NCBI GenBank assembly: GCA_041649615.1
Contig: JBAZMT010000002.1
Span: 10,017 to 74,016 of the forward strand
Length of the DNA: 64,000 nt
Direction of reading: 5' to 3'
From: Parcubacteria group bacterium
GTDB taxonomy: Bacteria > Patescibacteriota > Minisyncoccia > UBA6257 > Colwellbacteraceae
A model generated the notes under the pieces. It had not been told where the DNA came from. It saw only the letters and a list, made by a program, of their open reading frames with translations, and ran no database searches. Made by a program: the position numbers and the translations under genes. Each line of letters begins with the position of its first letter. Positions within the stretch are counted from its first letter, which is position 1. Positions 4,803-63,977 of the stretch are shown here, piece after piece.

Positions 4803-4831
4803 GTGTGGTTTGTAGCGGCATTATAACCGCG

Positions 4832-4903: not shown

Positions 4904-5013
4904 AAATAAACTCCTATAGACAATAGAAGTTTTTGGTTAAAAATTCAATTTTATAGACTCAACGCAGAACGTTTGCTAAAATTGTTTGGTATCTAACTTC
5001 TGCTCGGGTTGTC

Positions 5014-6096: not shown

Positions 6097-6199
6097 ATTA
6101 CTAATTTTCAATTTTAAAATCCCAATTTCCAATGGCATTATAATGCGGGAGATATGTCCTTTTCGGCGTTTTAGTGCCTTATTATAATTGGTAAATACT

Positions 6200-6934
6200 A
6201 TGGACTTAATTCGCGAGTGCAAAAAGCTGATTGAGGCTTGCAAAAACGGGGAACTCGGTCCGACAGAGATGCCAGAAGATTCCAATCCGGGATTTATAAA
6301 GAAAGATAAAGAGCTTAGAATCGCGTATTTCACTCTGCCGATGGCTCTCAATTACCAGCGTGACAGTTTTGCCATGTGGCGAGCCGCTCTCGAGACTTAT
6401 AAAGACCCAGAAACGCGGAATGTTTTTAATGTTAACGCAACGACAAAAATGTCGGAAGCAAAATTGAGAGATAATCTTTTAAAACATAAATTGGCGCTTC
6501 AACCGAACAAACATACGGATACTTGGAAGAGAATATCTGAATCGGTTTATGGAGGCTGGAAAAGTTTCGAAGGAATGATATCGGCCTCGGATAATGATTT
6601 TTTGAAACTCAAGGAAGTGATTCAAGGATCAAACAAGAAAGGATTTCCTTATTTATCCGGTCCAAAAATATTCAACTATTGGTCTTCTATTTTAGGCAGG
6701 TACGCCGGAGTGGTTTTGAAAAACACGGAATACATAGAAATAGCCGTGGATACGCACATACTGAAATGTTCGGTCAAACTTGGAGTCATAACGCCGAAAG
6801 AAGCGGAAAAACTCGGGCGATTGGAAATCTCGGAGAGGTGGCGCGAAGCCTTAAAAGGGTCAGGAATATCTCCGGCCGATATGCATTTTGTCTTGTGGTT
6901 TTGGAGCAGAAACGGATTCATTTATAAACCATAA
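6200..6934 (+). CDS. putative helix-hairpin-helix DNA glycosylase-like protein (HhH-GPD superfamily, archaeal 8-oxoG glycosylase-like)
   Basis: 'FPYLSGPKIFNYW' resembles the HhH Gly/Pro-rich loop; 245 aa. Family call by motif only. Start taken at ATG 6200; the TTG at 6188 is the alternative. Confidence 0.4.
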   Translation: MDLIRECKKLIEACKNGELGPTEMPEDSNPGFIKKDKELRIAYFTLPMALNYQRDSFAMWRAALETYKDPETRNVFNVNATTKMSEAKLRDNLLKHKLALQPNKHTDTWKRISESVYGGWKSFEGMISASDNDFLKLKEVIQGSNKKGFPYLSGPKIFNYWSSILGRYAGVVLKNTEYIEIAVDTHILKCSVKLGVITPKEAEKLGRLEISERWREALKGSGISPADMHFVLWFWSRNGFIYKP

Positions 6935-30638: not shown

Positions 30639-30914
30639 ATGAAGAAACAGGATTTAGTTGAGGCCGTAATGAACGCCGCCCAGATTGAGACAAAAAAGCA
30701 GGCCGATCAGGCTGTTCAAGCAGTTTTTGACAGCATAGTTAAGGCTATGAGTCGCGGTGAGGATGTTGCTATAACCGGTTTTGGAACATTCAGAGTCGCA
30801 AGAAGAGCGGCAAGAATGGGAATTAATCCGAAGACTGGAGAAAAAATCCAGATAGCCGCTTCCGTTAAACCCAAATTCAGAGCGGGAAAGCTTCTCAAAG
30901 AAGCTGTTCAATAA
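30639..30914 (+). CDS. hup: DNA-binding protein HU
   Basis: 'ITGFGTFRV...GINPKTGEKIQIAASVKPKFRAGK' HU/IHF fold signature. Confidence 0.9.
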   Translation: MKKQDLVEAVMNAAQIETKKQADQAVQAVFDSIVKAMSRGEDVAITGFGTFRVARRAARMGINPKTGEKIQIAASVKPKFRAGKLLKEAVQ

Positions 30915-49526: not shown

Positions 49527-50849
49527 ATGGAAGAGAAAAGGATATATATGGACTATGCGGCAACCGCGCCGGTAGACAGTCAAGTATTATCGGAGATGAT
49601 GCCGTATTTTTCCGAGAATTTCGGGAATCCTTCGTCGGTTCACGAATTTGGCGAAGAGGCACAAAAGGGGGTCGTAAAAGCGAGACAACAAATAGCCGAA
49701 TTCTTGGGATGTGATACTTCGGAAATTCTTTTTACAAGTGGAGCGACCGAAGGGAACAATACGGTCGTAAAAGGAATTGCGATGTCCCGGAAAATATGGG
49801 ACGAGCGAGAAGGAAAGCCGCACATAATAGTGACGGATATTGAACATGATTGCGTGCTTGAGTCGGCGAAAAGAGTTGCGAGAGACGGTCTTGCCGAAGT
49901 TTCGTTCGTGCCGGTTCAAAATGACGGTCGAGTAAACATAGAGACAATAAAAAGTCTTATTCGACCCGAAACGGCGCTTGTTTCCGTAATGTATGCCAAT
50001 AACGAAACCGGCGCGATACAGCCGATCAGGGAAATCGGAAAAATGATAGCGGAGTTGAATGCCACGGGAAGAAAAAGAATTTATTTTCATTCGGATTCCG
50101 CTCAGGCGGCGAATTATCTGGACTGCAACGTAAATAACTTACAGGTGGATTTACTTACCATTTCAGCGCACAAGATATACGGGCCGAAAGGAATAGGAGT
50201 GCTTTATGTAAGGAAGGGAACGCCGCTTGCGAAATTCATGGACGGCGGAGAACAGGAATACAAATTAAGGGCGGGAACGCATAACACGCCGGGAATAGTC
50301 GGTTTCGGAAGCGCCGTCTCAAGAATTAAGGATTACGCGGCAAAAAACGAAGAAATAAGGGTCTTAAGAGATAAGCTGATAGACGGAATACTTTCTTCGG
50401 TATCTCGTTCGGCATTGAACGGTCCGAAAGAAAACAGGTTGCCTAATAATGCGAATATCAGGTTTGAAGGAGCCGAGGGAGAAGCAATACTTGTGATGTT
50501 AAGCCAGGCCGGAATATCAGTTTCAACCGGTTCGGCTTGCGCGGCAAAATCTTTATCTCCTTCGCACGTTTTGAAAGCGATGGGAATGAGCGATCTTGAC
50601 GCGCACAGTTCAATCAGATTTTCTTTGGGAAGAGGAACGACAGCGGAAGACGTAAATTACGTGATATCCGTGTTACCGGGAATAATAGAAAAACTTCGCA
50701 GTGTTAGCGGAAGTTTCGGCGAACCGGCAAAGCAACCCTCTTCCGAAACAAACATGTTTTATAGCGATGACGTGCTTGATCGCGGAGGACTGCCCGCGGA
50801 TTTGGGATGTGAGAAGAACAGGAAAACGGGAGAGATAAAAGAAGAATAA
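49527..50849 (+). CDS. iscS: cysteine desulfurase IscS/NifS
   Basis: 'IYMDYAATAP', 'SAHKIYGPKG'. Confidence 0.85.
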   Translation: MEEKRIYMDYAATAPVDSQVLSEMMPYFSENFGNPSSVHEFGEEAQKGVVKARQQIAEFLGCDTSEILFTSGATEGNNTVVKGIAMSRKIWDEREGKPHIIVTDIEHDCVLESAKRVARDGLAEVSFVPVQNDGRVNIETIKSLIRPETALVSVMYANNETGAIQPIREIGKMIAELNATGRKRIYFHSDSAQAANYLDCNVNNLQVDLLTISAHKIYGPKGIGVLYVRKGTPLAKFMDGGEQEYKLRAGTHNTPGIVGFGSAVSRIKDYAAKNEEIRVLRDKLIDGILSSVSRSALNGPKENRLPNNANIRFEGAEGEAILVMLSQAGISVSTGSACAAKSLSPSHVLKAMGMSDLDAHSSIRFSLGRGTTAEDVNYVISVLPGIIEKLRSVSGSFGEPAKQPSSETNMFYSDDVLDRGGLPADLGCEKNRKTGEIKEE

Positions 50850-50853
50850 AGAT

Positions 50854-51216
50854 ATGTATTCAAAAGAAGTAATGGAGCATTTTCAGAACCCGAGAAATAT
50901 GGGGGCTTTGGAAAATCCGGAAGCGGTTGGAAACGTGGGAAACCCCGTTTGCGGGGACATGATGAAGATTTATTTGAAGATTAAAGACGGAGTGATAAAA
51001 GATATCGGGTTTGAAACTTTAGGATGTGTCGCGGCGATTGCCACCTCGTCAATGATAACCGAACTTGCGAAGGGGAAAACTTTGGAAGAGGCGGAAAAAA
51101 TTGAATTTAAAGACGTTGAGCACGCGCTTGGTTCTTTACCGCCTATTAAAATGCACTGCGCCGATTTATCAGTTCAGGCATTAAGGAAGGCAATAAAGGA
51201 GTATAGGGAAAATTAG
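50854..51216 (+). CDS. iscU: Fe-S cluster assembly scaffold (NifU/IscU N-terminal domain)
   Basis: 'NPVCGDMMK...GCVAAIATS...HCADL' three conserved Cys. Confidence 0.85.
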   Translation: MYSKEVMEHFQNPRNMGALENPEAVGNVGNPVCGDMMKIYLKIKDGVIKDIGFETLGCVAAIATSSMITELAKGKTLEEAEKIEFKDVEHALGSLPPIKMHCADLSVQALRKAIKEYREN

Positions 51217-51442: not shown

Positions 51443-51500
51443 CGTGCAAAGATTTTTTGAAATTCTGCCGGGGGCGCTTGCTTGGACGACCATAATCGCA

Positions 51501-52949
51501 ATGTTTTTCGTTTCGTGGCTTTTTCCCGTTGAAACGGCGATATTCATCATTCTTTTTGACATCTACTTCTTGCTTCGGACGATTCACTTTGCGATACACC
51601 TGGGTTTCGGGTATCGGGAAATGAAGAGGACGCAAAAAATAAACTGGCTGGAACGAACGAAAGAGTTGCCAGAAAGAAACGGGAAAAAGTGGAGCGATAT
51701 GTATCACCTTGTGATTTTCCCCATGTATAAGGAATCTTTGTCCGTCGTGAGAGAGAGTTTTAATTCGCTTTTGAAAACGAATTATCCGCTAGACCGGTTT
51801 ATCGTGGTTCTTTCCGGCGAAGAAAGAGCGGGAGAAGAGACGAGAGAACTAATAGATAAAATAAAAGAAGAATATGACGGGAAATTTTTCAGACTTTTTA
51901 CGACTATACATCCGAGCGATTTGCCGAACGAGATTCCGGGAAAAGGATCAAACGAAACTTGGGCGGCGAGAAGCGTAAAAGAGAAGGTAATAGATAAAGA
52001 AAATATTCCTTACGAGAATATTTTGGTTTCCACTTTTGACATAGATACGCAAGTTTTTCCCGATTATTTCGGCCGTCTGACTTGCGCTTACTTCACGGCG
52101 GAATATCCAGATAGAAGCAGCTACCAGCCGGTTGTGTTTTTTATAAACAATATTTACGAAGCTCCGATATTTGCGCGGATCGTGGCTTTTTCAACGACTT
52201 TTTGGAACATAATGAGCCAGGTCAGGCCGGAGAAGCTTATAACTTTTTCATCGCACTCAATGCCTTTCAAAGCGCTCGTGGAAATCGGATTTTGGATGAC
52301 AAATCACGTTTCGGAAGATTCCCTTATTTTTTGGCAGTGTTTTTTGCATTACAACGGCGACTGGAGAACGATTCCTTTGAATTATCCCGTATCAATGGAT
52401 GCGAACGTGGCGCCGACTTTTTGGCGAACGATGAAAAACATCTACAAGCAACAAAGAAGATGGGCGTGGGGATGCGAAAACATTCCATACGTTTTCGGAG
52501 GATTCATCAAAAACAAAAAGATAGCCATCCGACAGAAAATATATTGGGTGTATCAACACATAGATATTTATTGGGGATGGGCGACTAACGCCTTGATAAT
52601 TCTTTTGCTCGGCAGGTTGCCTCTTATTCTCGGAGGCGAAAGTTTTAACAAGACGATTCTTTCGTATCAGTTGCCGCAACTTACAAGCACTTTCATGAAC
52701 TTGGCGGTCGTGGGTATCATCACTTCGGCAATAATTTCGGTTGCGATTCTGCCGCCGAAGCCGGAAGGTTTCCGGTGGTATCACTACTTTTTATTTGTCG
52801 TGCAGTGGCTGTTGTTACCGATAAACTTGATAGTATTTAGCGCCATACCGGGACTTGATTCGCAAACGAGAATGATGCTTGGCGGCAAATTCCGGCTTGG
52901 ATTTTGGGTAACACCGAAGGCAAGAAAAGGAGAAAATTTACGAGAGTAA
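51501..52949 (+). CDS. membrane-embedded family-2 glycosyltransferase (processive, cellulose/chitin-synthase-like)
   Basis: N- and C-terminal TM helices; cytosolic domain with 'FDIDTQ' (DxD), 'SEDSLIFW' (ED) and 'KQQRRWAWG' (QxxRW). Start placed after the tRNA at ATG 51501; the GTG at 51444 would abut the tRNA. Confidence 0.65.
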   Translation: MFFVSWLFPVETAIFIILFDIYFLLRTIHFAIHLGFGYREMKRTQKINWLERTKELPERNGKKWSDMYHLVIFPMYKESLSVVRESFNSLLKTNYPLDRFIVVLSGEERAGEETRELIDKIKEEYDGKFFRLFTTIHPSDLPNEIPGKGSNETWAARSVKEKVIDKENIPYENILVSTFDIDTQVFPDYFGRLTCAYFTAEYPDRSSYQPVVFFINNIYEAPIFARIVAFSTTFWNIMSQVRPEKLITFSSHSMPFKALVEIGFWMTNHVSEDSLIFWQCFLHYNGDWRTIPLNYPVSMDANVAPTFWRTMKNIYKQQRRWAWGCENIPYVFGGFIKNKKIAIRQKIYWVYQHIDIYWGWATNALIILLLGRLPLILGGESFNKTILSYQLPQLTSTFMNLAVVGIITSAIISVAILPPKPEGFRWYHYFLFVVQWLLLPINLIVFSAIPGLDSQTRMMLGGKFRLGFWVTPKARKGENLRE

Positions 52950-52975: not shown

Positions 52976-53503
52976 ATGAGCAATAAGAGGATTTTTATTA
53001 TCGGCGGGATAGTTATTTTCGCTTTTCTCGTTGTGGTCGGGATTCTTTATTATTTTGGCAATAACTCCAGGGGAAAATTGGGCGGAGAATCAACGGGAGA
53101 CGCTTTTCTTGAAGAACTTGAAAACATTCCGGTGCCGGAGATGGGAGAAACGCCCTCAAATGAATCGGTTGCCGTTCCAGTCTCCGTAAGAGAAGCGGTA
53201 GAAGGGGCGAGCGAACAAATCAGATCTTTTCTTGTCAGCGTAGAGAAAGAGAAATTTACGCCGTCCATAGTTTCGGTAAATAAGAACGACACGGTACACA
53301 TTAATTTCACGGCGGTAGACGATGATTATGACGTGGTCGTTCCGGATTACGGGTTAAGTCAGAGGATGAGGAGAGGAGAAACAAAGACAATTGAATTTAG
53401 GGCGGAAACGGAAGGAACACACGTTTATTATTGCGAATCGTGCGGAGGATTGGACTCTCAAGCAAAAGGGTACATCGTGGTTAAATCATCCACACCCAAC
53501 TAG
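52976..53503 (+). CDS. membrane-anchored hypothetical protein with a beta-rich, possibly cupredoxin-like, C-terminal domain
   Basis: N-terminal TM; 'HVYYCESCGG' Cys-containing block. Cu ligands not canonical. Confidence 0.35.
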   Translation: MSNKRIFIIGGIVIFAFLVVVGILYYFGNNSRGKLGGESTGDAFLEELENIPVPEMGETPSNESVAVPVSVREAVEGASEQIRSFLVSVEKEKFTPSIVSVNKNDTVHINFTAVDDDYDVVVPDYGLSQRMRRGETKTIEFRAETEGTHVYYCESCGGLDSQAKGYIVVKSSTPN

Positions 53504-53530: not shown

Positions 53531-54259
53531 ATGAGGAAGATCGCGTTTTTGATTTTCGCCGTTATGGGGATCGCTGTATTTTCTGCGGCGCCGGTTTTGG
53601 CTTGGACCAATCCAGCAGCTAATCCGGCAACGGGAGGAGGAGCGGTAACGGCGGAACAGAATGCTCCAGCAAGTTCCATTCTTATAAAGAACACAGGCGG
53701 AGTTTGGATTAATACGACGACGGATACGAGGCCTCTTGTGATTTCGCGCAATGGAACCGATAGCGAGCGGATAAATATCGGGATAACGGACGGCACAACA
53801 AATTTCTATTACAAAAATGACGAGGCGGTAGGTTCGATCTCCTTTAGAATTCAAAATACGGACACCGAGACGGGAGGAGGGGCGGCGGCGAATGATAATG
53901 TGATAATGACCATCTTGGGCGGCGGAGCAAGTTACGATAACGGTCGCGTCGGTATAGGTACTGCCAGTCCTTCATATAAATTGTCCGTAGCGGGTTGGAT
54001 CCAATCAACTACCGGCGGGTTTAGGTTTCCTGATGGAACAACCCAGACAACGGCTGCCAGCAGTTCTACCGTAAACGCGGCGAATGTTTCTGCGGGAACG
54101 TTCGGGGACAACACGGGAGGAGGTATTTATCTTTTCCCCTCAAATATCGGATTTAAGAGCGGTGTAAGCTCGTTTACGATACGGCCCATAAGCACTACGT
54201 CTATGGGAATTTATGATAGCGCGGGAGCGCAAGTGCTTGTTCTAGACGAAGGAACATAG
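53531..54259 (+). CDS. secreted Gly/Thr/Ser-rich repeat protein (tail-fibre/beta-helix-like motif)
   Basis: Signal peptide; 'GRVGIGTASPSYKLSVAGWI' resembles a motif common in phage tail-fibre-like and adhesin proteins. Recall-based. Confidence 0.45.
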   Translation: MRKIAFLIFAVMGIAVFSAAPVLAWTNPAANPATGGGAVTAEQNAPASSILIKNTGGVWINTTTDTRPLVISRNGTDSERINIGITDGTTNFYYKNDEAVGSISFRIQNTDTETGGGAAANDNVIMTILGGGASYDNGRVGIGTASPSYKLSVAGWIQSTTGGFRFPDGTTQTTAASSSTVNAANVSAGTFGDNTGGGIYLFPSNIGFKSGVSSFTIRPISTTSMGIYDSAGAQVLVLDEGT

Positions 54260-54335
54260 TTTTGTCTGTTGCCGTTTTTCAGAACCGACGTTCTCTGTCT
54301 CCAGCGAGAAGAGCCGTCTACCTCTCGGGCTTTTG

Positions 54336-54358
54336 CCCGATTTTTTAAAAAAATCGGG
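54336..54358. terminator. perfect AT-loop palindrome (probable terminator)
   Basis: CCCGATTTTTT-A-AAAAAATCGGG. Confidence 0.4.
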
Positions 54359-54446: not shown

Positions 54447-55193
54447 TTGATGGCTTTTGTTTGGGACGAGTTGAAGGAACTAAAAAGAATTTTTATTCCG
54501 TGGGTTTATATATTCGGGGTTTTGGGAATAGGATTTTTTTCGGTACCTGTTTTAGAAGGTAAAACGATCGCGGCGGAGGCATTCTTGCAAATGAAAAGCA
54601 TGCTCGTGCCGAAGGAAGTGGAATTTATCGTTACCGAGCCGGTTTCGGCGTTCGTGGTGCAAGTGGGCATCGCGCTTATGATCTCTTTTATTCTCACTTC
54701 GCCTTTTTTCTTTTACAGGCTAGCCAAATACATTTCGGGGGCGCTTTACGACAAAGAAAGAAGAACGTTACGAAAATTGTTTTTACCGGCGGCATTTCTT
54801 TTCGCGGCGGGGGCGGTATTCGGCTATTTCATAATCTTGCCGCCCACTTTTAAAATCCTTTACGAATATGCGGGGAATATCGGAGCAAAACCCTTCTTTT
54901 CCGTATCCGATTTTGCCGTTTTTACGCTTGGATTCACCTTCGCCTGCGGGATAATGTTTCTTCTGCCCGTGGCGATGGGAATCCTGAATTTCGTAGGGGT
55001 TACTAATAGAGCCATGTGGAAGAAAAACTGGCGTTACGCTTTCTTAATTTTTCTAATCGTGTCTGCTATAATTACGCCAGATGGAAGCGGGGTTACGATG
55101 ATAATGCTTTCATTGCCCTTGACCGGACTTTATTTTGTAGGCTCGGTCGCGGGTGGTAACGGTCGAAAACAAACTAAAAAGGATAAAAAATAA
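54447..55193 (+). CDS. tatC: twin-arginine translocase subunit TatC
   Basis: Six TM helices; 'ITPDGSG' TatC motif. Confidence 0.85.
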   Translation: MMAFVWDELKELKRIFIPWVYIFGVLGIGFFSVPVLEGKTIAAEAFLQMKSMLVPKEVEFIVTEPVSAFVVQVGIALMISFILTSPFFFYRLAKYISGALYDKERRTLRKLFLPAAFLFAAGAVFGYFIILPPTFKILYEYAGNIGAKPFFSVSDFAVFTLGFTFACGIMFLLPVAMGILNFVGVTNRAMWKKNWRYAFLIFLIVSAIITPDGSGVTMIMLSLPLTGLYFVGSVAGGNGRKQTKKDKK

Positions 55194-55194
55194 A

Positions 55195-55374
55195 ATGGGT
55201 TTCACAGAACTAGCGATAATAGTTGTTCTTGCAATAATTGTTTTCTTTGGCGGCAAAAAAATAGCCGAGCTTGCGAGGTCGGCCGGTCGCGCTTCGGCTG
55301 AATTCAAGAAAGGAAAGCTAGAGGCGGAGAAGGAAGTCAAAGACTTGATGAAAGACAATGAAGGCAAAAAATAA
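55195..55374 (+). CDS. tatA: twin-arginine translocase subunit TatA/E
   Basis: 'MGFTELAIIVVLAIIVFFGGKKIAELARSAGRASAEFKKG' TatA TM helix plus amphipathic helix. Confidence 0.8.
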   Translation: MGFTELAIIVVLAIIVFFGGKKIAELARSAGRASAEFKKGKLEAEKEVKDLMKDNEGKK

Positions 55375-55615
55375 GACAAACGAAAAAAGAAGAAAATTTC
55401 TGAAGCTCTTGGCTTTTGGCGGAATTGCGCTCGTAGCGGCAAAACTTTTCGGGAATAAACTAACGGCTTTAGCGGCTCCCGTTTCCGCTTTGCCGAAGAA
55501 AAAAGAAAGCCAAAAAACGTTCGGGGACAAAGTAAATATGATTGAGGACGACAAGCAAGTGGCTTTCATTGATAAGAGAACGGGAGAAGAAATATTTATT
55601 TTAGAAAAAGACTAA
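55358..55615 (+). CDS. small protein with a twin-arginine (Tat) signal peptide
   Basis: 'EKRRKFLKLLAFGGIALVAAKLFG' matches the Tat RRxFLK consensus followed by a hydrophobic core. Overlaps the tatA 3' end and is translationally coupled to the next gene. Confidence 0.5.
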   Translation: MKAKNKTNEKRRKFLKLLAFGGIALVAAKLFGNKLTALAAPVSALPKKKESQKTFGDKVNMIEDDKQVAFIDKRTGEEIFILEKD

Positions 55616-55616
55616 A

Positions 55617-55904
55617 ATGGCAATTAAAATATCCAAAAACAGGCTGGATATGGACAGCAAACCGATCAAGAATTCGGGACGCATAGACGCGACCGAAATT
55701 CACGGGATAGTTTATTACACGGACGTTCATTTTGAGGAAAAAGAATGCGCCGTTTGCGGAGCGCGTTTTAAGCCCGGAGACGGAATTGCGCTTTATGTCA
55801 GGAGAGTAACCGCGAAAGGAACCGATCTGATCCCGGCCCACATAGATTGTTTTTGCTGCGAGACAAAGAAAGGTCAATCAAAAAAGAAAATAAAAAAAAG
55901 ATAA
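55617..55904 (+). CDS. small Cys-containing hypothetical protein (zinc-ribbon-like)
   Basis: 'CAVCG...CFCC'; its stop overlaps the next start (TAATG). Confidence 0.4.
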   Translation: MAIKISKNRLDMDSKPIKNSGRIDATEIHGIVYYTDVHFEEKECAVCGARFKPGDGIALYVRRVTAKGTDLIPAHIDCFCCETKKGQSKKKIKKR

Positions 55905-56179
55905 TGGCGTTTGAATGGAAATTAATAGGGGACGATACGGGCGACGCAAAAACGGAAACTTCACAACCAGCGCAATCAACGCCTGTTCCACAGCCGGTGA
56001 CTTCGCAATCGGAGAATCCAAAGCCTGCGCAGTCAGAAGCGGAAACGCCTGCTAACGGACCGGCTTGTCCGAACCATAACGCATCGGAGAATACGGGTTA
56101 TCACAACGTTCATGACTCGGGAGTTTATAACTCGTATGATACGGGAGCGAACGTAGATGAGAATTCGGTAGTTGGTTAA
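55904..56179 (+). CDS. MAFxW-family protein A (91 aa): candidate precursor/substrate of the radical-SAM enzymes
   Basis: Starts 'MAFEWKLIGDDTGDAKTE'; Pro/Gln/Ser/Asn-rich; shares its N-terminal motif with the next two genes. Confidence 0.5.
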   Translation: MAFEWKLIGDDTGDAKTETSQPAQSTPVPQPVTSQSENPKPAQSEAETPANGPACPNHNASENTGYHNVHDSGVYNSYDTGANVDENSVVG

Positions 56180-56203: not shown

Positions 56204-57124
56204 ATGGCGTTTACTTGGAGCTCGCTTAGCGCGGGAAGCCCAATTGAAGACGAAGACTATAACGAGGTTAAAACAAACCTCGATTCGGTGTATTCGGCTT
56301 TAGGAATTTCCAGGCCAAGCTGCTCGGGGCCAGGATGGACGGTTTTGCCCGTATCAAGCGGTTCGGCGATAACTTCGGCTCAATCACAGCAGTTAAGGGA
56401 CGTAACGGACTATGCCGATACGAATTGGTGTAAGACGCACAACACGGCGCATTGTAGCGGAGTTAATTCTACTGAAAATGTAACTCATAATAGCGGTAAT
56501 AATGCAACAGTTAATGCGACGGCCAATACAACCGTTAGATCAACCCACAATTCTGGTCATTATACCTCTTACAACGCAACGGTGGATGCGTCGGATTATG
56601 TGAATGATTTCATGACTAACTGTTACCATTACATTGCTGCTGATTCTGCGGCAAAGGTAAATGATTATGTGACTGTTCAGACTATGCACTTCTCCGCTTT
56701 TCAATCTGGCCTATGTGGACAGGAGAACACTACACATAATACCACTGTTCGAGCAGCGCATTGGGGTCCTTTTAATGGAACGGTTAATTTAACAGTAAGA
56801 GCAGCGCACAATGCCGATTACGACAGTCCCGACAACATAGGAGCGCAGGCGACAAATAATACCACCCATTACGGTTCAAACTGGAGTCCTTATAACAACG
56901 GCGTTAATACGTCTGTAAGGAGCGCTTATTACGTTGATAACGACGCGCCCGATTACATAAGCGTAAGAACAACGCATAATACCACTCATTTAAGCGCGCA
57001 TAATGGTACTGTTCGAGCCGCCTATTGGGGGCCGTATAACGGAACGGTATATACGACGCACAAGGGAACACATCACTCAAATTATGACGGGACGGATAAC
57101 AGTACGGTGAGAAGCGTTTATTAA
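56204..57124 (+). CDS. MAFxW-family repeat protein B (306 aa): Asn/Thr/His/Tyr-rich, candidate radical-SAM substrate
   Basis: Leader-like N-terminus 'MAFTWSSLSAGSPIEDEDYNEVKTNLDSVYSALGI'. Repeated modules 'NTTH', 'TVRAAHWGPFNGTV', 'NNTTHYGSNWSPYNNGVNTSVRSAYYVDNDAPDYIS'. No signal peptide. Confidence 0.55.
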   Translation: MAFTWSSLSAGSPIEDEDYNEVKTNLDSVYSALGISRPSCSGPGWTVLPVSSGSAITSAQSQQLRDVTDYADTNWCKTHNTAHCSGVNSTENVTHNSGNNATVNATANTTVRSTHNSGHYTSYNATVDASDYVNDFMTNCYHYIAADSAAKVNDYVTVQTMHFSAFQSGLCGQENTTHNTTVRAAHWGPFNGTVNLTVRAAHNADYDSPDNIGAQATNNTTHYGSNWSPYNNGVNTSVRSAYYVDNDAPDYISVRTTHNTTHLSAHNGTVRAAYWGPYNGTVYTTHKGTHHSNYDGTDNSTVRSVY

Positions 57125-57136: not shown

Positions 57137-57937
57137 ATGGCTTTTACTTGGCAACAAAATATAGGAGTGGGTTCTTCCATTGATGCGGCGGATATTTTAG
57201 AAATTCGCACGAACGTTAATACGGTAGATTCTAAAAAATGTGTAACTCACAACGCGGGTGTTAATACAACTTATAATTCTGGGGTAGACAGCACTGATAG
57301 AGCGAGTCATTACTCAGGGCAGAACACAACGGTACGGTCGACTTATAATAGCAGTCAAAACAGTGCAAATAATGTAACTGTTTATACAGGACAAGACTCT
57401 GGTTATCATGGCACTGCCGATGCTGAATTTTGGGGACAGCACCACACAAGTGAAGAAGTGGGAGCGAAAACTTATGTTTATTCAGGCTTTAATACAGGTG
57501 TTTATACAAACCAAGATGCAGGGGTATTCACGGGCAATAATAGTGCTGTTCGAGCTACTCATAATACTACACACGACGGGAGCGATTATGATACGCAATA
57601 TTCTTCGCAGAATACTACCCATAACGGCGCACACTGGAGTCCGTATAACGGATACGTATATACGACAGTAAGGGCAAATTATTATGTGGATAATGATACG
57701 CCCGACTATATATCACACAACACAAACAACAATACCACTCACTACGGTTCAAACTGGAGCCCATATAATTCAAGCGTTAATACGACGGTTAGAGCAACTC
57801 ATAATGCGGGCGTATTGAGCATTCATAATAGCAATCACGACGGAGGAGACTATACGAGCCAGTATTCTACTCATAATCCGAACTATAAAACCGCTCATTG
57901 GGGACCGTATAATGCAACGCACAATCGCAATTATTAG
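57137..57937 (+). CDS. MAFxW-family repeat protein C (266 aa): paralogue of B
   Basis: 'MAFTWQQNIGVGSSIDAADILEIRTNVNTVDSKK' plus the same modules ('NTTHYGSNWSPYNSSVNTTVRATH', 'YYVDNDTPDYIS', 'HWGPYNAT'). Confidence 0.55.
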   Translation: MAFTWQQNIGVGSSIDAADILEIRTNVNTVDSKKCVTHNAGVNTTYNSGVDSTDRASHYSGQNTTVRSTYNSSQNSANNVTVYTGQDSGYHGTADAEFWGQHHTSEEVGAKTYVYSGFNTGVYTNQDAGVFTGNNSAVRATHNTTHDGSDYDTQYSSQNTTHNGAHWSPYNGYVYTTVRANYYVDNDTPDYISHNTNNNTTHYGSNWSPYNSSVNTTVRATHNAGVLSIHNSNHDGGDYTSQYSTHNPNYKTAHWGPYNATHNRNY

Positions 57938-58113
57938 CCTAGAAACTAGAAACCAGTATTTATACGGTAAACTAGAAAACGAATTTGGGTTCTGATTTTT
58001 ACGGGCCTATCTTGATTAGGATTATGGCGGAGACGGACCCTCCTACGCTAAAACTACGGAAGGGTGGCGACTGTCAAGTTGATATAGAGGAACCCCTTAA
58101 CTAAAATAGGAGG

Positions 58114-59403
58114 ATGAGATTTGAGGCGGCCGAACTTTTAACGACCGGACAATGCCCGTTGAGCTGCAAGTACTGTTACATTCCAAAGGTACCGGCGATG
58201 CAGGCGGTGCATGCCGATATCGTTAAAGGATTAGAAGACGGAACGTTTTTAGAAAATTTAAAAAAAATAGTGGGTGATAATCTGACCCACCTTAGTTTTT
58301 GGGGAACGGAACCGGCGCTCACTCTGCCTATTTTAAAAAACAAACTGGACGATATAGAAAGACTTTTTCCAAAGGCGAAAGAGATAGGTTTTTCGACTTC
58401 AATGGTGATGCCCGAGCCGATCATTGACTTTGCAAAGGAGCTTGAAAAAAGAGGACTGAAATTGAATTTGCAGGTTTCGCTCGACGGGCCGGAATTTATC
58501 GTGGACGAGAACCGGTTTCCCGGGGCGGCCAAGAAAATCCCCGAGGCGATACTTCACTTCGTGAAAGAAATGCAAGGGACGAACGTTTATATTGATTTGC
58601 ATTGGAAACCGACGCTCACGATTGAAAATATCCAAGCGATGACCGAAAAACCGGAGAAAATTGACGAATATATTAATTTTTTCCGTGATTTGGAGGCGGA
58701 AATAAAAAAAATAAATACGTCTTCAAACGTCATAATGAGGGAGGGAGGATATATTCCCACGCTTGCCGTACCGGGGAAATTTACATCGGCGGACGGAAAA
58801 TTATTTGCTAAATATTTAAGAACCCTACACAGCAAGGGTTACGAGAGCGCTTATTCGCATCGACTAACAAGAATAATAAACTATTCGGACGAATTAGGAC
58901 CAAAGAGAAGAATGTTTACCTGTTCGGGGGGAGATTCAAACGTGGGAGTAGGCGACAGTTTGCATATTTGCCACCGAACTTTTTACTTAAACGATCCGCG
59001 TTATGTGGGGGCGGTATTGGAAAAGGAAGGAATAGAGAATTGGGATGTTTCCATCTTTAACCAAGGACTCGTAGACCATTTGAGAGAGTGGTATATGCCT
59101 TCGGTTGACGATGAACTGAAACTCCAGAACTTTGATTATATTTTAAGAGGGTATCATGACTTCTGGGCGATTAAACTTTCTTCAATCGAGGTGATGACAA
59201 AGGAGCTTGCTCTCGCGGGGCAAGCCGACCCATTGTTTTTGGAAAACAAAGATTATATGAGTTTATTTACGCTTTTTATGGCAACCGCGCATTCGTGCCC
59301 GATGGAGGCGGTTTTAAACACGGGGACGCTTCAACTTACGCCCGTGTCGCTCATAAGAATGTTCGGGAACGGAGCCTTCAGGGAAATAATAAAAATCGTA
59401 TGA
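58114..59403 (+). CDS. radical SAM enzyme (CxxxCxxC), paralogue 1
   Basis: AGGAGG SD; 'GQCPLSCKYCY' rSAM cluster motif; C-terminal Cys-containing 'FTCSGGD...SLHICHRT'. Confidence 0.8.
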   Translation: MRFEAAELLTTGQCPLSCKYCYIPKVPAMQAVHADIVKGLEDGTFLENLKKIVGDNLTHLSFWGTEPALTLPILKNKLDDIERLFPKAKEIGFSTSMVMPEPIIDFAKELEKRGLKLNLQVSLDGPEFIVDENRFPGAAKKIPEAILHFVKEMQGTNVYIDLHWKPTLTIENIQAMTEKPEKIDEYINFFRDLEAEIKKINTSSNVIMREGGYIPTLAVPGKFTSADGKLFAKYLRTLHSKGYESAYSHRLTRIINYSDELGPKRRMFTCSGGDSNVGVGDSLHICHRTFYLNDPRYVGAVLEKEGIENWDVSIFNQGLVDHLREWYMPSVDDELKLQNFDYILRGYHDFWAIKLSSIEVMTKELALAGQADPLFLENKDYMSLFTLFMATAHSCPMEAVLNTGTLQLTPVSLIRMFGNGAFREIIKIV

Positions 59404-60722
59404 CATACCAGGAAGAAAACAATCAGTTAGTAGAATCGTTCTTGAATCACAGCTTCTTCAAGGGATTTAAACATCCCGAGCTTAAAGAAAGCGAGAATTT
59501 TAAATCGTTAGAGCTTTTCTTTAACGACAAATGCAACTTAAAGTGTAAATACTGTTATCTGCAACGGTTTGGAGAAAAACTGTATCCGCACGAACATCAA
59601 GACGGGGAAACACTTCTTAAAAATTTAAAAATGCTTTTGGATTGGTTGAACGAGAAAGAATACGTGCCGGAACACATAGAAATATTCTCGGGAGAAGTAT
59701 TTATCCAAGACGCAGGTTGGAAGGCGATAAATATGATCCTTGACAACTATAAGGACAAAGAAAAAAAGCCGGAATACATAGTGGTGCCAACAAACTTTAC
59801 TTTTATACTCTCGTCTGACCTCACAAAAAAGGTAGAGGATTTACTTACTAAGGCCAAAGAAGTTGGTCTACCTATAGGACTTTCCTCATCATTTGACGGG
59901 AAATACTGCGAAGTAAACAGACCTTTTAAGAGCGGGAAAGAGATAAGGGACGACGCTTATTACGACAAAGTTTTTGAATTTTCCAAAAAATGGGGAACGG
60001 GGTTTCATCCGATGGTCTACTCGGAGCATATTGAAGACTGGCAGAAGAATTGGTTGTGGTTCCAAGAAAATTTTTCAAAGCATCGGCTGCCGTGGAAAAA
60101 TATCTATCTTTTAGAAGTTCGGAACGTGGAATGGACCGAAAGGCAGATGGCGGATTTGGGGAAGTTTGTGGAATTTTTGATCCATTGGACTTTTGACAAT
60201 CCTTGCCATGGAGACGTAGGCACGTATTTAGATTTTCTCTTTGATGGAGGATACAACATTTTAAGGAACCCTTTGACGACCATCGGGAGAGGAATCGGAT
60301 GTTCCATTCAATCAAATTTGGTTTTGAGACTCGGGGATCTGTCTCTTGTGCCGTGCCATAGAACGTCTTATTCGCCCTTTAACTTCGGCAAATTTAAGGT
60401 AGAAAACGGCAAAATAACGAGTTTTGAATCAAAGAACGTAGATATGATGGTCGCCATATATTCTTTTGACGCGAGTACCCAGCCTTATTGCGAACAGTGC
60501 CTTCTGAAGACTTTGTGTTCGTTCGGGTGTTTGGGAAGCCAATTAGAAGTTACCGGGGACCCGTTTACGCCTATTCCTTCCGTTTGCCAGATGGAGCACA
60601 TAAAAGTGGCTTCAATGATTAAGGCCTATAAAGAACTCGGCATGTTAGAGCCCGTACTTGCGAGAGTGGGTCAAGGGAAAGCAGACGTACTCCAAGAACT
60701 AGCGAAAATGCTCGGATACTGA
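59400..60722 (+). CDS. radical SAM enzyme with a SPASM-like C-terminal Cys cluster, paralogue 2
   Basis: 'KCNLKCKYCY' rSAM motif; 'SLVPCHRT' shared with paralogue 1; C-terminal 'YCEQCLLKTLCSFGCLG...SVCQMEH' auxiliary-cluster pattern. Its ATG overlaps the upstream stop (ATGA). Confidence 0.85.
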   Translation: MTYQEENNQLVESFLNHSFFKGFKHPELKESENFKSLELFFNDKCNLKCKYCYLQRFGEKLYPHEHQDGETLLKNLKMLLDWLNEKEYVPEHIEIFSGEVFIQDAGWKAINMILDNYKDKEKKPEYIVVPTNFTFILSSDLTKKVEDLLTKAKEVGLPIGLSSSFDGKYCEVNRPFKSGKEIRDDAYYDKVFEFSKKWGTGFHPMVYSEHIEDWQKNWLWFQENFSKHRLPWKNIYLLEVRNVEWTERQMADLGKFVEFLIHWTFDNPCHGDVGTYLDFLFDGGYNILRNPLTTIGRGIGCSIQSNLVLRLGDLSLVPCHRTSYSPFNFGKFKVENGKITSFESKNVDMMVAIYSFDASTQPYCEQCLLKTLCSFGCLGSQLEVTGDPFTPIPSVCQMEHIKVASMIKAYKELGMLEPVLARVGQGKADVLQELAKMLGY

Positions 60723-60783: not shown

Positions 60784-61353
60784 ATGGAAAACCAAATAAC
60801 TAACACTCTGCAAGCCAGCAAATCTCAAGTTGAGCGTATTTTAAATTACGAGGATGATCTAAAGCGCATATTCGCTTCCCAGCATGTCAGCAATATAAAA
60901 AGAACCCTCAATTTTATGACGGAACAACTTACAACCGTTATAAACGGGGGAAACGTTGTGCCGACTTCCGAAGAGATGAATATGGCAGCGGAAATGGCGC
61001 GCGTTTTTGCGAACATTGCGCTTGAGAAACCGATTGAGCCGATATTTCGAGACCTTTCGGCGAGTTATCTTTTGATCATTCACAACTGGAACGAGGCTAC
61101 GATCAAAAATCATAATATTTCCACAAACGTCAAAATGACGAACGGAATCGTGAAGGCGCAACTAACGCTTATGGATACGATAGACGTACTCCAAAAAACG
61201 CTTGAAAAAATAAGAAAAACTCACCTATATGAACCGCCGGCGTTTAATTTAAGTAGATCGTATCTGGATAACTTGAAGAAAGCCATTGAAGAAAAAGGCC
61301 CGGACGCCTTAGTCCCAAAAAAGCCGGATAATGTCTCAAACCAAGAAAGCTAA
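60784..61353 (+). CDS. hypothetical protein (189 aa)
   Basis: Clean ORF downstream of the radical-SAM pair; no family recognised. Confidence 0.4.
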   Translation: MENQITNTLQASKSQVERILNYEDDLKRIFASQHVSNIKRTLNFMTEQLTTVINGGNVVPTSEEMNMAAEMARVFANIALEKPIEPIFRDLSASYLLIIHNWNEATIKNHNISTNVKMTNGIVKAQLTLMDTIDVLQKTLEKIRKTHLYEPPAFNLSRSYLDNLKKAIEEKGPDALVPKKPDNVSNQES

Positions 61354-61690
61354 AAAAGACCCGAGAATAGATTCGTTCTCCAGAGCTCTTAATTTATCCA
61401 TTTTTGAAAATTTTTCGGCGCAGGTGAGAGGAAAAGTGGATACGATAAGTAAAAACGCGATTACCGTAAAGGAAGGGAAGGACAAAGTAAAACTTTTGTT
61501 TGACAAGGATTTTCCGCCCGCCGTTATAAAAATAACAATTGGCGGCAAGACCGGGAAAAAAGCCGAGGATATTACTCTTGCGGCCGTTAAGACGGGAAAG
61601 AAGGTGTCGGCCAACGTCGCGTTGCTTCCATCCGGAGAATGGAAGGCCTTTGGAATTGCCATGAGAGAGGAGGTAAAATCCTCAAAGTGA
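61331..61690 (+). CDS. hypothetical Lys-rich protein (119 aa)
   Basis: ORF overlapping its neighbours; weak. Confidence 0.35.
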   Translation: MSQTKKAKKDPRIDSFSRALNLSIFENFSAQVRGKVDTISKNAITVKEGKDKVKLLFDKDFPPAVIKITIGGKTGKKAEDITLAAVKTGKKVSANVALLPSGEWKAFGIAMREEVKSSK

Positions 61691-63264
61691 GAAGAACGGT
61701 TATTTTTGCGGGCGAGGCCGGACAAGGCATTGACCGGACGGCGGTTATTTTTGGGAAAATCGTCGCTTTATTAGGCTATTCGTGCTTCATATATCGCGAT
61801 TACTCATCGCTTATTCGCGGAGGGCATAATTTCAGCATTGTTACTTTTTCGCGAGATGTAGTTAGAAGTCACGATGAAAAGGCGGACGTACTCGTGGCGT
61901 TAGACGAAAAGTCCGTTTTGGGCCATGAGAAAGTGATTCGGAAAGAGGGAATGATTTTTGCGGCAAAGGACATAGATTTGAAAGAAGGTGATAAACACTT
62001 CGTGAATAATGTTCTGCTCGGGATGCTCTTAAAATATTTTTCAATTCCGAAAAGTTCAGGAGTCGGGATTTTAAGAAAGGAAATCGGCGAAAGCGCCATC
62101 AGGGCGTTTGAATATGGTTATTCTAAAGATGTTAAGGGGGTCAATTTGGAGGTTTTGAAAACCGGTGTTTCATTAGAACTTTCTGACGGAAACCATGCCG
62201 TTGCCAAAGCGGCTTTGGATTCGGGGCTGAAAATGGCTTTTTACTATCCGATGACTCCGGCGACAGGAGTATTTGCCGAACTGGAAAGGCAGAAGAGAGA
62301 AAAGAAAATATTAGTGGAGCAAATGGAAGATGAAATCGCAGCCGCGAACGCGATACTCGGGGCAAACTATGCGGGCGTACCAGCCATGACGGGGAGTTCG
62401 GGAGGAGGGATCGCGCTTATGAGCGAAGCGGTAAGCTTTGCCGGAATGGCCGAATTGCCGGCGGTATTTTACGCGGCCCAGAGAATGGGGCCTTCAACCG
62501 GCGTGCCGACTTATACGGCGCAAGGAGATTTGAAATTTGTATTGAATATGGCTCCCGGAGAATTTCCGCGTTTGGTTTTAATCCCGGGAGACGAGGAAGA
62601 CGCGTATAAAGCGACAAGAGAAGCGTTCTATTTCGCTAATAAGTACAGAATACCAGCGTTTGTAATTTCCGATAAACACATTGCCGAGAGCTATTCCACG
62701 CATAAAACGCTAAAAAGCACGCTTCCAAGGGCTGCGGTTTTATCCGAAAAAGCGAGCGATGGTTATCAAAGCTACGCTTTTACCAAAGACGGTATTTCAC
62801 CGGCCATAATACCCGGAGGAGGGCAAATTTTCCGCGCGGCAAGCTACGAGCATGACGAATTCGGCCACACGACAGAAGACCCGGTGATTATAAAAAAGAT
62901 GAACGATAAGAGGCTCCGCAAACTAGAAACTCTTAAAAAAGAACTCACAAAATTCTCTGGAATCTCGGTCTATGGAAAGGGAGAAAAAATAATCGTGTTT
63001 GCGGGTTCGCCAAAGGGAGCGATCCTTGACGCTTTGCCGATGCTTAAAGGATTCAAAGCGATTCAGATCAATAGGCTTGCGCCTTTTCCCGAAAATGAAT
63101 TGGCGAAAGCCTTAAAGGGCGAATTTTACACGGTTGAAAATAACGCGACTGGACAACTGAAAGACATAATAAGAGAAAATTGCGGAGTCAGCGCGAAAAA
63201 AAGTTTTTTGCGTTATGACGGCAGACCATTTACGCCGGACGACATAATCAAATTTTTTAAATGA
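61687..63264 (+). CDS. korA: 2-oxoacid:ferredoxin oxidoreductase alpha subunit with a fused gamma-like N-terminal domain
   Basis: 'VIFAGEAGQG' gamma-domain Gly motif, then the alpha domain ('YYPMTPATG'). Start ambiguous: GTG 61687 or ATG 61639. Confidence 0.75.
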   Translation: MRRTVIFAGEAGQGIDRTAVIFGKIVALLGYSCFIYRDYSSLIRGGHNFSIVTFSRDVVRSHDEKADVLVALDEKSVLGHEKVIRKEGMIFAAKDIDLKEGDKHFVNNVLLGMLLKYFSIPKSSGVGILRKEIGESAIRAFEYGYSKDVKGVNLEVLKTGVSLELSDGNHAVAKAALDSGLKMAFYYPMTPATGVFAELERQKREKKILVEQMEDEIAAANAILGANYAGVPAMTGSSGGGIALMSEAVSFAGMAELPAVFYAAQRMGPSTGVPTYTAQGDLKFVLNMAPGEFPRLVLIPGDEEDAYKATREAFYFANKYRIPAFVISDKHIAESYSTHKTLKSTLPRAAVLSEKASDGYQSYAFTKDGISPAIIPGGGQIFRAASYEHDEFGHTTEDPVIIKKMNDKRLRKLETLKKELTKFSGISVYGKGEKIIVFAGSPKGAILDALPMLKGFKAIQINRLAPFPENELAKALKGEFYTVENNATGQLKDIIRENCGVSAKKSFLRYDGRPFTPDDIIKFFK

Positions 63265-63977
63265 AAAAAGAACCGCAAAACATAAATACAACAGAGAAAA
63301 ATACATGGTGCCCGGGGTGCCTTAATTTCGTAACGCTTGCGACGTTAAAGAAAACGTTAAGAAAACTCCACGACGAGAATAAAATAGATCTGAATAAAAC
63401 GGTTCTTGTTACGGATATCGGGTGCGGAGCGAAGATCTACGATTACATAAACGTCTCTGCCGTTTACGCTTTGCACGGACGAGTGTTGCCGGTGGCGACG
63501 GGAATAAAAGCGGCAAGACCGGAGCTTACGGTAATCGGATTCGGAGGAGACGGAGGAACGTACAACGAGGGAATGAATCACTTGATACATTCGGCAAGAA
63601 GAAACGTGGGAGTAACGATGATCGTTGCGAACAACAGGGTATTTGCCCTTACCAAGGGGCAACCGACGGCGACAAACGAAACGAGTTTCGGGATACCGAT
63701 CGATGCCATAAGACTTTCGCAGGATGCGGGAGCGACGTTTACGATTCGCGCTTCGGCGCTTGCGCCTGATTTTTTAGAAAAAGCTCTGGAAAAGGCAATA
63801 ACGCACAAAGGTTTTTCGCTTTTAGAAATAATCCAGCCATGCCTAATATTTAAAAATGACGTGGATGAGATCCGTAAAGAAACGGAAAAGCTAAAAAAAG
63901 CGGGGATACCGGAGGGAAAGAAGAGGATAACATGGGAGGAGGCAATAAGAGGACATATTGCATCAAAGAGAGACTGA
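63261..63977 (+). CDS. korB: 2-oxoacid:ferredoxin oxidoreductase beta subunit (TPP-binding)
   Basis: 'WCPGCLNF' and 'GFGGDGGTYNEGMNHL' TPP-binding motif. Confidence 0.85.
   Translation: MKKEPQNINTTEKNTWCPGCLNFVTLATLKKTLRKLHDENKIDLNKTVLVTDIGCGAKIYDYINVSAVYALHGRVLPVATGIKAARPELTVIGFGGDGGTYNEGMNHLIHSARRNVGVTMIVANNRVFALTKGQPTATNETSFGIPIDAIRLSQDAGATFTIRASALAPDFLEKALEKAITHKGFSLLEIIQPCLIFKNDVDEIRKETEKLKKAGIPEGKKRITWEEAIRGHIASKRD

Follow-up and report, generated by a model that had tools for sequence, protein, structure and literature searches.

Why should the genes of a twin-arginine translocation (Tat) system stand directly in front of two radical S-adenosylmethionine (rSAM) enzymes? The question is raised by a 157-kb contig of a Parcubacteria group bacterium (JBAZMT010000002.1, assembly GCA_041649615.1), of which a stretch of 64,000 nucleotides (nt), here called the window, was analysed. 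In it, tatC and tatA are followed by the genes for an 85-amino-acid (aa) protein with a twin-arginine signal (P85), a 95-aa Cys/His protein (P95), three proteins of the MAFxW type (preA, preB and preC), the enzymes rSAM1 and rSAM2, and the proteins d189 and d119. Here it is proposed that the locus is probably a dedicated Tat operon, with export by hitchhiking probable and a cargo that is unusual and largely virus-derived. Comparison of loci gives this strong backing, whereas the mechanistic step at its centre is inferred. Much of microbial diversity consists of bacteria of the candidate phyla radiation (CPR) and of DPANN archaea, most of them apparently attached to other cells; to the question of how they build attachment structures with few known secretion systems, this locus suggests a concrete and testable answer.

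Judged by their sequences, TatC and TatA are securely identified as ordinary members of their families. TatC matches PF00902 (E 3.4e-45, 154.8 bits against a cut-off of 25.1), TIGR00945 (139.8 bits, cut-off 132.7) and the Aquifex TatC of PDB entry 4B4A (E 2.5e-21), and a crude Kyte-Doolittle scan gives about six or seven hydrophobic peaks over residues 14-234, the pattern of a polytopic protein with six transmembrane (TM) segments. TatA (MGFTELAIIVVLAIIVFFGGKKIAELARSAGRASAEFKKGK) matches PF02416 (E 1e-11, 44.3 bits, cut-off 21), scores 46.4 bits with TIGR01411, under the cut-off of 53.9, and has a TM-like segment (residues 1-27), a Gly hinge and an amphipathic helix pattern. The window contains one TatC and one TatA with no further match, and no TatB is found nearby. 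A 248-aa open reading frame (ORF) with a TTG start at 6188-6934 was considered as a second tatC, having the same length, and was discarded, as it is unmatched by the TatC hidden Markov model (HMM).

P85 is read as a textbook Tat signal followed by a flexible linker and a three-strand beta domain of about 25 residues. The signal comprises K10-R11-R12-K13-F14-L15-K16, to be compared with the consensus (S/T)-R-R-x-F-L-K, and a 13-residue hydrophobic h-region, LLAFGGIALVAAK, ending in Lys29, a residue kept in at least 90% of the family members. The alignment-based AlphaFold2 model (pLDDT 70, moderate) has a helix at residues 9-35, a disordered linker at 36-58 and a three-strand beta meander at 59-83. 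The family includes 94 clusters of 60-136 aa without a Pfam domain, nearly all under CPR names (Parcubacteria, Paceibacterota, Pacebacteria, Colwell- and Zambryskibacteria), with one contig labelled candidate division KSB1. The motif RRx[FLIVM][LIVMF] occurs in 91 of the 94 (RRNFLK in 49, RRKFLK in 28), and the RR pair is invariant across an alignment of 85 sequences. A possible signal-peptidase site, A37-L38-A39|A40, is present in the window protein; A.A after the h-region is found in just 12 of 91 members, which indicates that most P85 proteins may remain uncleaved N-terminal anchors, and [GA][KR] stands 9-16 residues past the motif in 76 of the 91. Membership of TIGR02811, the Tat target of formate dehydrogenase regions, was rejected, since the match (E 0.0013) covers the signal region only and reaches 19 bits, far under the cut-off (48.45), and since those proteins stand in an unrelated genomic context. 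A match of the P85 HMM to the window ORF at 30639-30914 was set aside as a chance resemblance to the beta arms of an HU DNA-binding protein.

Among all window ORFs of at least 50 aa, P85 has the sole Tat-like signal, apart from one antisense ORF artefact. Only TatC, TatA and P85 among the operon products have hydrophobic segments in a Kyte-Doolittle scan, which found no segment of TM or signal strength in P95, the MAFxW proteins, rSAM1, rSAM2, d189 or d119. The initial annotation of the window, made from the sequence, had named tatC, tatA, a twin-arginine 85-aa protein and a 95-aa Cys protein, and these identities were confirmed (Pfam and NCBIfam; RRKFLK; CxxC...HxxC), as was its statement that the MAFxW proteins have no signal peptide.

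The arrangement of these genes was followed through homologous loci, numbered here with the prefix L. P85 comes directly after TatC-TatA in 17 of 17 distinct loci, with gaps of -26 to +129 nt. Eight of these loci were sampled, four through TatC homologues (42-48% identity) of other CPR genomes without the rSAM cassette and four through further P85 homologues, and all eight show TatC-TatA-P85. The arrangement is far beyond chance, and the Tat block is older and broader than its link to the rSAM genes. The constancy extends to the following gene, the product of which carries an I[KR]IS..R[LM]DM motif in 15 of the 17 loci and is called here the adaptor. A strict form of the motif, [IVL][KRS][ILV]S..R[LIMF]DM, matches 14 distinct proteins among 12,362 ORFs, each encoded right after P85, and none in shuffled sequences; the adaptor of L128 carries the variant MRISATRIDM.

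Beyond the adaptor the genes are variable, and their products have no signal peptide. Elsewhere they include LamG/SPRY/DUF7483 proteins of 800-1236 aa (E 2e-110), an RCC1 propeller fused to the adaptor and a weakly matching beta-helix protein, in operons that also hold genes for glycosyl-, sulfo- and methyl-transferases. What the cargo has in common is that folding, metal loading or modification takes place in the cytoplasm, the classical reason for the use of Tat; modification enzymes acting in the cytoplasm beside cargo without signals would call for export after folding. According to the initial annotation, finding tatCA next to unrelated genes in close relatives would speak against a tie to the rSAM product. 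This is half the case: cargo free of rSAM genes is indeed found in other Parcubacteria/Paceibacteria, but behind a conserved TatC-TatA-P85-adaptor block, and varied cargo behind a constant Tat block points to a broader rule and not to an accidental neighbourhood. Some of these loci also contain PF05635 genes for the small four-helix '23S rRNA intervening sequence protein' (L121 3281-3649, L124 9506-9850, L129 2077-2463), whose points of insertion vary: in front of tatC, in front of the gene for the upstream protein, or in the P85/adaptor junction.

In the window the adaptor position is occupied by P95, which has an N-terminal MAIKISKNRLDM motif of the IKIS..RLDM type and a Zn-type domain, C44-x2-C47 ... 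H75-x2-C78. A HMMER scan of 1.84 billion representative proteins returned 53 relatives of P95, nearly all matched at their extreme C-terminus, and outside the CPR loci the P95 domain forms the last ~90 residues of proteins of 236-1655 aa. Two proteins with this ending, the 1428-aa one of L011 and the 1655-aa one of L101, match tail-fibre and central-fibre families of PHROG (E 1.7e-22 and 3.3e-26). By sequence, P95 is thus the domain with which viral tail-fibre proteins end, encoded as a protein of its own and with its CxxC...HxxC motif conserved. Comparison with PDB sequences gave chance-level matches only, and a single-sequence AlphaFold model of P95 was unusable (pLDDT 41). Multiple matches to P95 are found within each of two giant proteins, P0337 (1765 aa) and P0345 (3108 aa); one of the two has 19 stretches of the Zn-type part, and the other, apparently with a signal peptide, has nine stretches resembling the N-terminal IKIS..RLDM part, so these short modules can occur as tandem repeats.

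The MAFxW proteins that follow P95 had been called precursors in the initial annotation; they look like tail-fibre-type proteins of viruses and not like short precursors of ribosomally synthesized and post-translationally modified peptides (RiPPs). In preB, a conserved domain of ~75 aa at the N-terminus is followed by a tail in which H, N, Y, T and S are frequent and [TS]VR[AS]x[HY] repeats occur; the preB/preC pair precedes rSAM1 in most of ~100 distinct cassette loci. Because the viral pair directly follows genes ending in the P95 domain, the MAFxW proteins are placed where distal fibre proteins sit. Searches of Pfam, NCBIfam and PHROGs gave no useful identity for P85, P95, preA, preB, preC or d189, with only sub-threshold matches, and neither P85, the adaptors nor the MAFxW proteins belong to a curated family.

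The cassette loci were collected through an alignment of rSAM1 homologues, which led to 18 genomic, 80 metagenomic and 22 IMG/VR loci. Across ~100 distinct loci, HMMs of the window proteins reveal one constant core: a protein ending in the P95 domain, preB, preC, rSAM1, rSAM2 and d189. The MAFxW-rSAM1-rSAM2-d189 cassette is mainly viral. It stands behind tail-fibre genes in at least 22 IMG/VR contigs, and in L104 a gene for the large terminase subunit (E 1.5e-32) lies a few kb away. Three IMG/VR contigs are also deposited in metagenome-assembled genomes (MAGs), under the labels Thermoprotei, Omnitrophota and Paceibacterota (L011 = L105, L018 = L116, L017 = L109), and the odd spread of rSAM1 homologues over phyla (Thorarchaeota, Thermoplasmata, Dehalococcoidales, Saccharibacteria and others) probably comes from viral contigs binned into MAGs or from proviruses. 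The protein d189 follows rSAM2 in 85 loci, both viral and cellular, at the usual place of a fibre-assembly chaperone, with a sub-threshold HTH_28 match only; d119 has no Pfam match.

The two enzymes weakly resemble peptide and protein maturases, and by sequence every cut-off of a named family was failed. Both contain a CxxxCxxC cluster motif and stay just under the PF04055 cut-off of 29.5 bits, rSAM1 with 28.5 bits (E 2e-6) and rSAM2 with 23.7 bits; rSAM1 is 100% identical to P0001, 264 homologues of it were found, and homologues carry precomputed PF04055 annotations. The best maturase match of rSAM2 is PapB (E 1.3e-14, 54.2 bits against a cut-off of 340), other named rSAM/SPASM maturases (GrrM/OscB, HxsB, QhpD, AlbA) give at most 40 bits against cut-offs of 170-855, and the SPASM model TIGR04085 gives 21.2 bits for rSAM2 against a cut-off of 27. 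A glycosyltransferase (GT1) domain (PF00534, E 1.4e-11) is fused to the C-terminus of rSAM1, in proteins of 800-840 aa, in L035 (10001-12424), L006 (2466-4877) and L028 (7007-9529), and GT1 is a separate gene in the viral cassette of L104 (12521-13465) and probably also in L110 and L004, so that glycosylation of the fibre proteins may come on top of rSAM modification.

The coupling of this cassette to Tat separates the cellular copies from the viral ones. Among 43 distinct loci with at least 1.5 kb of upstream sequence, tatC-tatA-P85 stands immediately 5' of the cassette in six, all of them CPR (L001, L004, L006, L007, L028 and L035), and two further loci, L020 and L023, have the same Tat genes at a contig edge, which gives eight Tat-linked CPR loci. 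The Tat genes are absent from the other 37, including all 22 IMG/VR contigs. Every relative with the rSAM cassette in a cellular CPR chromosome has tatC-tatA-P85 directly in front, despite differing flanks. The nine-gene block TatC-TatA-P85-P95-preB-preC-rSAM1-rSAM2-d189 is found in eight distinct CPR loci with TatC identities of ~40% to 81%, and the flanks of the Tat-positive loci include RpoB (L035), RNase Y and HU (L028) and giant surface proteins upstream, so the block travels as a unit in cellular chromosomes. An interpretation of these loci as prophages was rejected, since housekeeping and surface genes flank them (NifS, IscU and the 2-oxoacid:ferredoxin oxidoreductase, RpoB, RNase Y, HU) and no IMG/VR contig has Tat. 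The Tat-free viral cassettes fit the export model proposed below, as parts of a virion need no export.

A possible archaeal counterpart, perhaps an independent version of the Tat link, is found on the cellular DPANN contig L008 (Iainarchaeum, with CDC48 adjoining). Here the cassette is followed, at 4188-5272 and ~500 nt downstream of d189, by TatC, TatA and a 57-aa ORF, EEKRKFLRFLLAALAVVVAYIVFG, with KRKFLR, in which KR replaces RR. This ORF is the best match of the P85 HMM outside the family (14.8 bits, E 0.013), in the signal region only. The dedicated link between Tat and the rSAM product considered in the initial annotation is therefore upheld in one respect, all cellular CPR cassettes and no viral ones having tatC-tatA-P85 in front, and is too narrow in another, since the same block precedes cargo free of rSAM genes; its other option, in which a partner protein is exported, now explains the link best.

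A second exported product is encoded on the other side of tatC. The 242-aa protein sec242, whose gene lies outside the positions 54447-55904 treated in the initial annotation, has an N-terminal hydrophobic Sec-type signal, MRKIAFLIFAVMGIAVFSAAPVLA|W, and its last ~30 residues (FTIRPISTTSMGIYDSAGAQVLVLDEGT) contain the same three-strand motif as the P85 C-terminus. In 11 of the TatC-TatA-P85 loci examined, a surface protein with a Sec signal (114-1651 aa) stands directly 5' of tatC and ends in this motif. The ends of the upstream proteins follow the pattern ..N.F[KRS][IVL]......[LIVT].[IVM][FY]D..G..[IL][IL].FD[EQ]..., and P85 ends in F.V.E...L.F.D..GEEI.I.DK. With hhalign, the two sets of C-termini match with a probability of 90% (P 1.6e-6, 36 columns); a regular expression written after the fact matches solely P85s and upstream proteins among 4618 ORFs of at least 60 aa, with 0.05 matches expected from shuffled sequences, and the full-family P85 HMM gives a weak match (E 0.045) to the upstream protein of L028. 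The C-termini of P85 and of the upstream proteins are thus likely homologous on sequence grounds.

The upstream proteins look like a large uncharacterised fibre family. Those of the window (53531-54259), L004, L124 and L126-L131 have a longer stretch towards the C-terminus in common, ..I[KR]ISSTGGNIR..ENLWVC.GG.C......GN[VI].VE......N.F.., in which a Cys pair is conserved. Their N-termini have 'AWT.P...PP' or GNVGIGT-type motifs, which are common in CPR surface proteins.

The features of the locus are collected in Table 1. The junctions are tight from tatC through preA (tatC/tatA +1, tatA/P85 -17, P85/P95 +1 and P95/preA -1 nt, the last by the TAATG overlap already noted in the initial annotation); its range of -17 to +2 nt holds to this point and no farther, the next gaps being +24 (preA/preB), +12 (preB/preC) and +176 (preC/rSAM1), followed by -4 nt for rSAM1/rSAM2. 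For tatC, the ATG at 54450 is likelier than the TTG at 54447, as the NCBI protein (P0121) has 247 aa; the true start of tatA is the ATG at 55195 and not the GTG at 55153. No terminator-like site was found by consensus scan between tatC and 61731, so the break between tatA and the downstream genes that would have spoken against coupling is not seen. The hairpin lies upstream of tatC instead and suggests that tatC begins the transcription unit; it comes from the consensus scan only, and such sites are no more numerous in this region than in shuffled sequence.

Table 1. Features of the Tat-rSAM locus and its neighbours, in positions of the whole 64-kb window; all genes listed are on the + strand.
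Feature	Position	Strand	Description
NifS	49527-50849	+	
IscU	50854-51216	+	
Glycosyltransferase	51444-52949	+	GT2-type, membrane
Cupredoxin-like protein	52976-53503	+	membrane-anchored
sec242	53531-54259	+	242 aa; Sec-type signal
Terminator-like hairpin	54325-54340	+	TCGGGCTTTTGCCCGA then T-run, in the 187-nt sec242/tatC spacer; consensus scan
tatC	54447 (TTG) / 54450 (ATG) to 55193	+	247 aa; ~six TM segments
tatA	55195-55374	+	59 aa; N-terminal TM, FGGKK hinge, amphipathic helix
P85	55358-55615	+	85 aa; small Tat-signal protein, RRKFLK
P95	55617-55904	+	95 aa; Zn-type Cys/His protein, adaptor-like
preA	55904-56179	+	91 aa; MAFEW protein, short paralogue, closest relatives only
preB	56204-57124	+	306 aa; MAFTW protein
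preC	57137-57937	+	266 aa; MAFTW protein, second of preB/preC pair
rSAM1	58114-59403	+	radical-SAM enzyme, CPLSCKYC
rSAM2	59400-60722	+	radical-SAM enzyme, CNLKCKYC, weak SPASM-like C-terminus
d189	60784-61353	+	189 aa; conserved cassette protein
d119	61331-61690	+	119 aa; closest CPR loci only (12 loci)
2-oxoacid:ferredoxin oxidoreductase	directly after d119 (61639-63977)	+	

The gap between preC and rSAM1 (57938-58113, 176 nt) is the only long spacer of the operon and measures 62 nt in the closest relative, L001. It contains a promoter-like site at 58079-58107 (10/12 matches), and an AGGAGG abuts the ATG of rSAM1 with zero spacer; an RNA element or attenuator was looked for in the gap, and its folding was no better than that of shuffled sequence (z = 0.32). 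NifS and IscU (49527-51216) lie 5' of the block and the oxidoreductase (61639-63977) 3' of it, an arrangement kept only in the closest relatives (L001, L003 and L020-L023). These neighbours could supply Fe-S clusters and low-potential electrons to the two rSAM enzymes, or be a coincidence.

From these observations, it is proposed that Parcubacteria-type CPR have a minimal TatAC dedicated to its substrate, with P85 as a small escort or anchor by which fibre parts, folded and modified in the cytoplasm, are carried through it, a reading given an even chance of being right. In the cytoplasm, the two Fe-S rSAM enzymes would modify the MAFxW proteins and P95 would bind its metal. The folded complex would then dock on the beta domain of P85, probably via the IKIS..RLDM strand of the adaptor, and the twin-arginine signal of P85 would take the whole assembly through TatAC by hitchhiker export. 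Outside, the cargo would stay tethered by the mostly uncleaved signal-anchor of P85 or, alternatively, pass to sec242, the Sec-exported protein with a likely homologous beta domain at its C-terminus; in either case a surface fibre would result. Proteins exported by Tat are already folded and loaded with cofactors, and some of its substrates travel as heterodimers with one signal (PMC10924467). In gene content the window resembles such hitchhiker pairs, with co-encoded partners of which only P85 has a signal.

Several observations weigh against this proposal. A search of the 53 P95 and 94 P85 homologues for Rosetta-stone proteins, with an RR signal joined to an adaptor or cargo, found none. Cargo proteins of up to 1236 aa are very large and, were they to form trimers as phage fibres do, would be beyond known Tat substrates. 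Two of the 17 loci (L124 and L125) have no RLDM motif in the gene after P85. Also, an HMM of the P85 C-terminus alone, run against the ORFs of the loci, retrieved no upstream protein at E <= 1, so the homology of the two C-termini rests on the profile-profile comparison and the post-hoc pattern. Finally, the operon is deduced from gene spacing and a consensus terminator scan and not from transcripts, and further Tat substrates may exist in the genome beyond the 64 kb seen.

Some of these points also suit a second account, in which P85 is the sole Tat passenger and pairs, as an anchor or cap, with the homologous C-terminus of the upstream Sec-exported protein, the downstream genes being merely co-regulated. 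P85 would then be a small membrane-anchored or released protein, and the proteins without signals would be cytoplasmic or exported otherwise. The three-strand motif common to the two C-termini suits this account, as do the constancy of TatC-TatA-P85 before varying downstream genes, the failure to find P85 fused or otherwise directly tied to the cargo, and the large size of some cargo for Tat. However, it leaves unexplained why the gene after P85 shares the IKIS..RLDM motif, why a virus-derived cassette gained Tat in cellular genomes only, and how lectin- or fibre-like proteins without signals arrive at the surface; moreover, a 45-residue passenger, unstructured except for a hairpin, would not itself require an exporter of folded proteins. 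This account, the main rival of the escort model, is regarded as less likely than that model and unlikely overall.

Two further explanations fit the data poorly. If the locus were an ordinary RiPP cluster, the MAFxW proteins would be leader-core precursors from which modified C-terminal peptides are cut out and released, and the role of Tat and P85 would be limited to some exported accessory factor, such as an immunity protein or the partner of a protease, or have nothing to do with the peptide. The best rSAM matches, although weak, are indeed peptide maturases (PapB, GrrM/OscB, HxsB and the QhpD type), and a conserved N-terminal region with a hypervariable repeat-rich tail recalls leader and core. 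However, all scores with the named maturases are far under their cut-offs, the MAFxW proteins are 91-600 aa long and always paired, no protease or peptide transporter was found in the cassette, and the viral pair comes directly behind tail-fibre genes with the P95 C-terminal domain, which makes a RiPP cluster quite improbable. An accidental neighbourhood, with tatCA as a general housekeeping Tat system beside an rSAM operon, would agree with the occurrence of tatCA without the cassette and with the report that TatA and TatC are generally present in Paceibacteria, Microgenomatia and Saccharimonadia (PMC9166423). Such an accident would have to produce the same block between different flanks in eight CPR loci and one DPANN locus, P85 after TatA in 17/17 and an RLDM adaptor after P85 in 15/17 loci, and junctions of +1, -17, +1 and -1 nt, and is very hard to credit.

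The proposal of P85-mediated export has a wider and more tentative form, possible but held with distinctly less confidence, in which a viral module of rSAM-modified tail fibres would have been taken over by ultra-small episymbionts, namely Parcubacteria-type CPR and, in a separate event, one or more DPANN archaea, which show it on their own surface with other phage-like lectin fibres. A purpose-built minimal TatAC, with P85 as the hitchhiking escort, would let through the folded, metal-loaded and modified fibre parts, and P85 would hand them over to a Sec-exported stalk that ends in the same beta module. If this were true, Tat would have a cargo class not seen before, and the fibres would be candidates for an organelle of attachment to the host. 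Searches of one literature collection for a module of TatAC with a mini-substrate and adaptor, for a link between Tat and an rSAM product, and for rSAM enzymes in viral fibre modules returned none of the three, only the presence of TatA and TatC in CPR (PMC9166423).

In the Parcubacteria-type lineage, Tat looks specialised, always having one tiny twin-arginine protein together with phage-fibre- or lectin-like proteins that lack signals and are modified, by rSAM chemistry, sulfation or glycosylation, in the cytoplasm. If hitchhiker export is correct, the range of Tat cargo widens beyond redox enzymes, the P85 family of ~94 clusters and the IKIS..RLDM adaptors gain a function, and parts of virus tail fibres would prove to serve cells in their own surface fibres. 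Attention would also be drawn to a widespread viral cassette, the two rSAM enzymes of which apparently modify fibre proteins by unexplored chemistry.

Among known systems, the phoD-tatAd-tatCd operon of the Gram-positive B. subtilis is a substrate-dedicated minimal TatAC operon in which PhoD itself is an enzyme cargo. Similarly, the window has TatA and TatC without TatB nearby, in one operon with their own twin-arginine substrate. However, P85 has ~80 aa and no enzyme domain and is the invariant third gene across a CPR lineage, and the operon of the window continues with a signal-less adaptor and cargo genes. In length (~66-85 aa), in having little beyond the Tat signal and in standing beside larger partners, P85 also resembles the TIGR02811 proteins.

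The rSAM part of the locus recalls systems with a product that works outside the cell, QhpD with the QHNDH gamma subunit as the nearest precedent for the chemistry, and PapB, GrrM/OscB and HxsB/HxsC, where paired or single CxxxCxxC rSAM enzymes stand next to repeat-rich substrates; in the QhpD-type systems, the QHNDH gamma subunit is cross-linked in the cytoplasm before its export, which uses a dedicated ABC-type system and is not known to involve Tat. Here, in contrast, the substrates are fibre-like proteins of 91-600 aa and the cassette is mainly viral. With the tail-fibre modules of tailed viruses, the locus shares a P95 domain that ends proteins of tail-fibre families, preB and preC next to it, and d189 at the place of the chaperone. 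The two embedded rSAM enzymes are unusual for such modules, and the copy in the window is chromosomal and joined to Tat, with no other virion genes in the inspected flanks (NifS, IscU and the oxidoreductase).

The closest parallel to the proposed export step is given by the Tat hitchhikers, such as HybO-HybC of E. coli hydrogenase 2 and DmsA-DmsB, in which, as in the window, one RR partner is co-encoded with partners that have no signal and mature in the cytoplasm. The known carriers are large cofactor-binding redox subunits; judged by its predicted protein, P85 would be a mini-escort instead, and its cargo would be fibre- or lectin-like.

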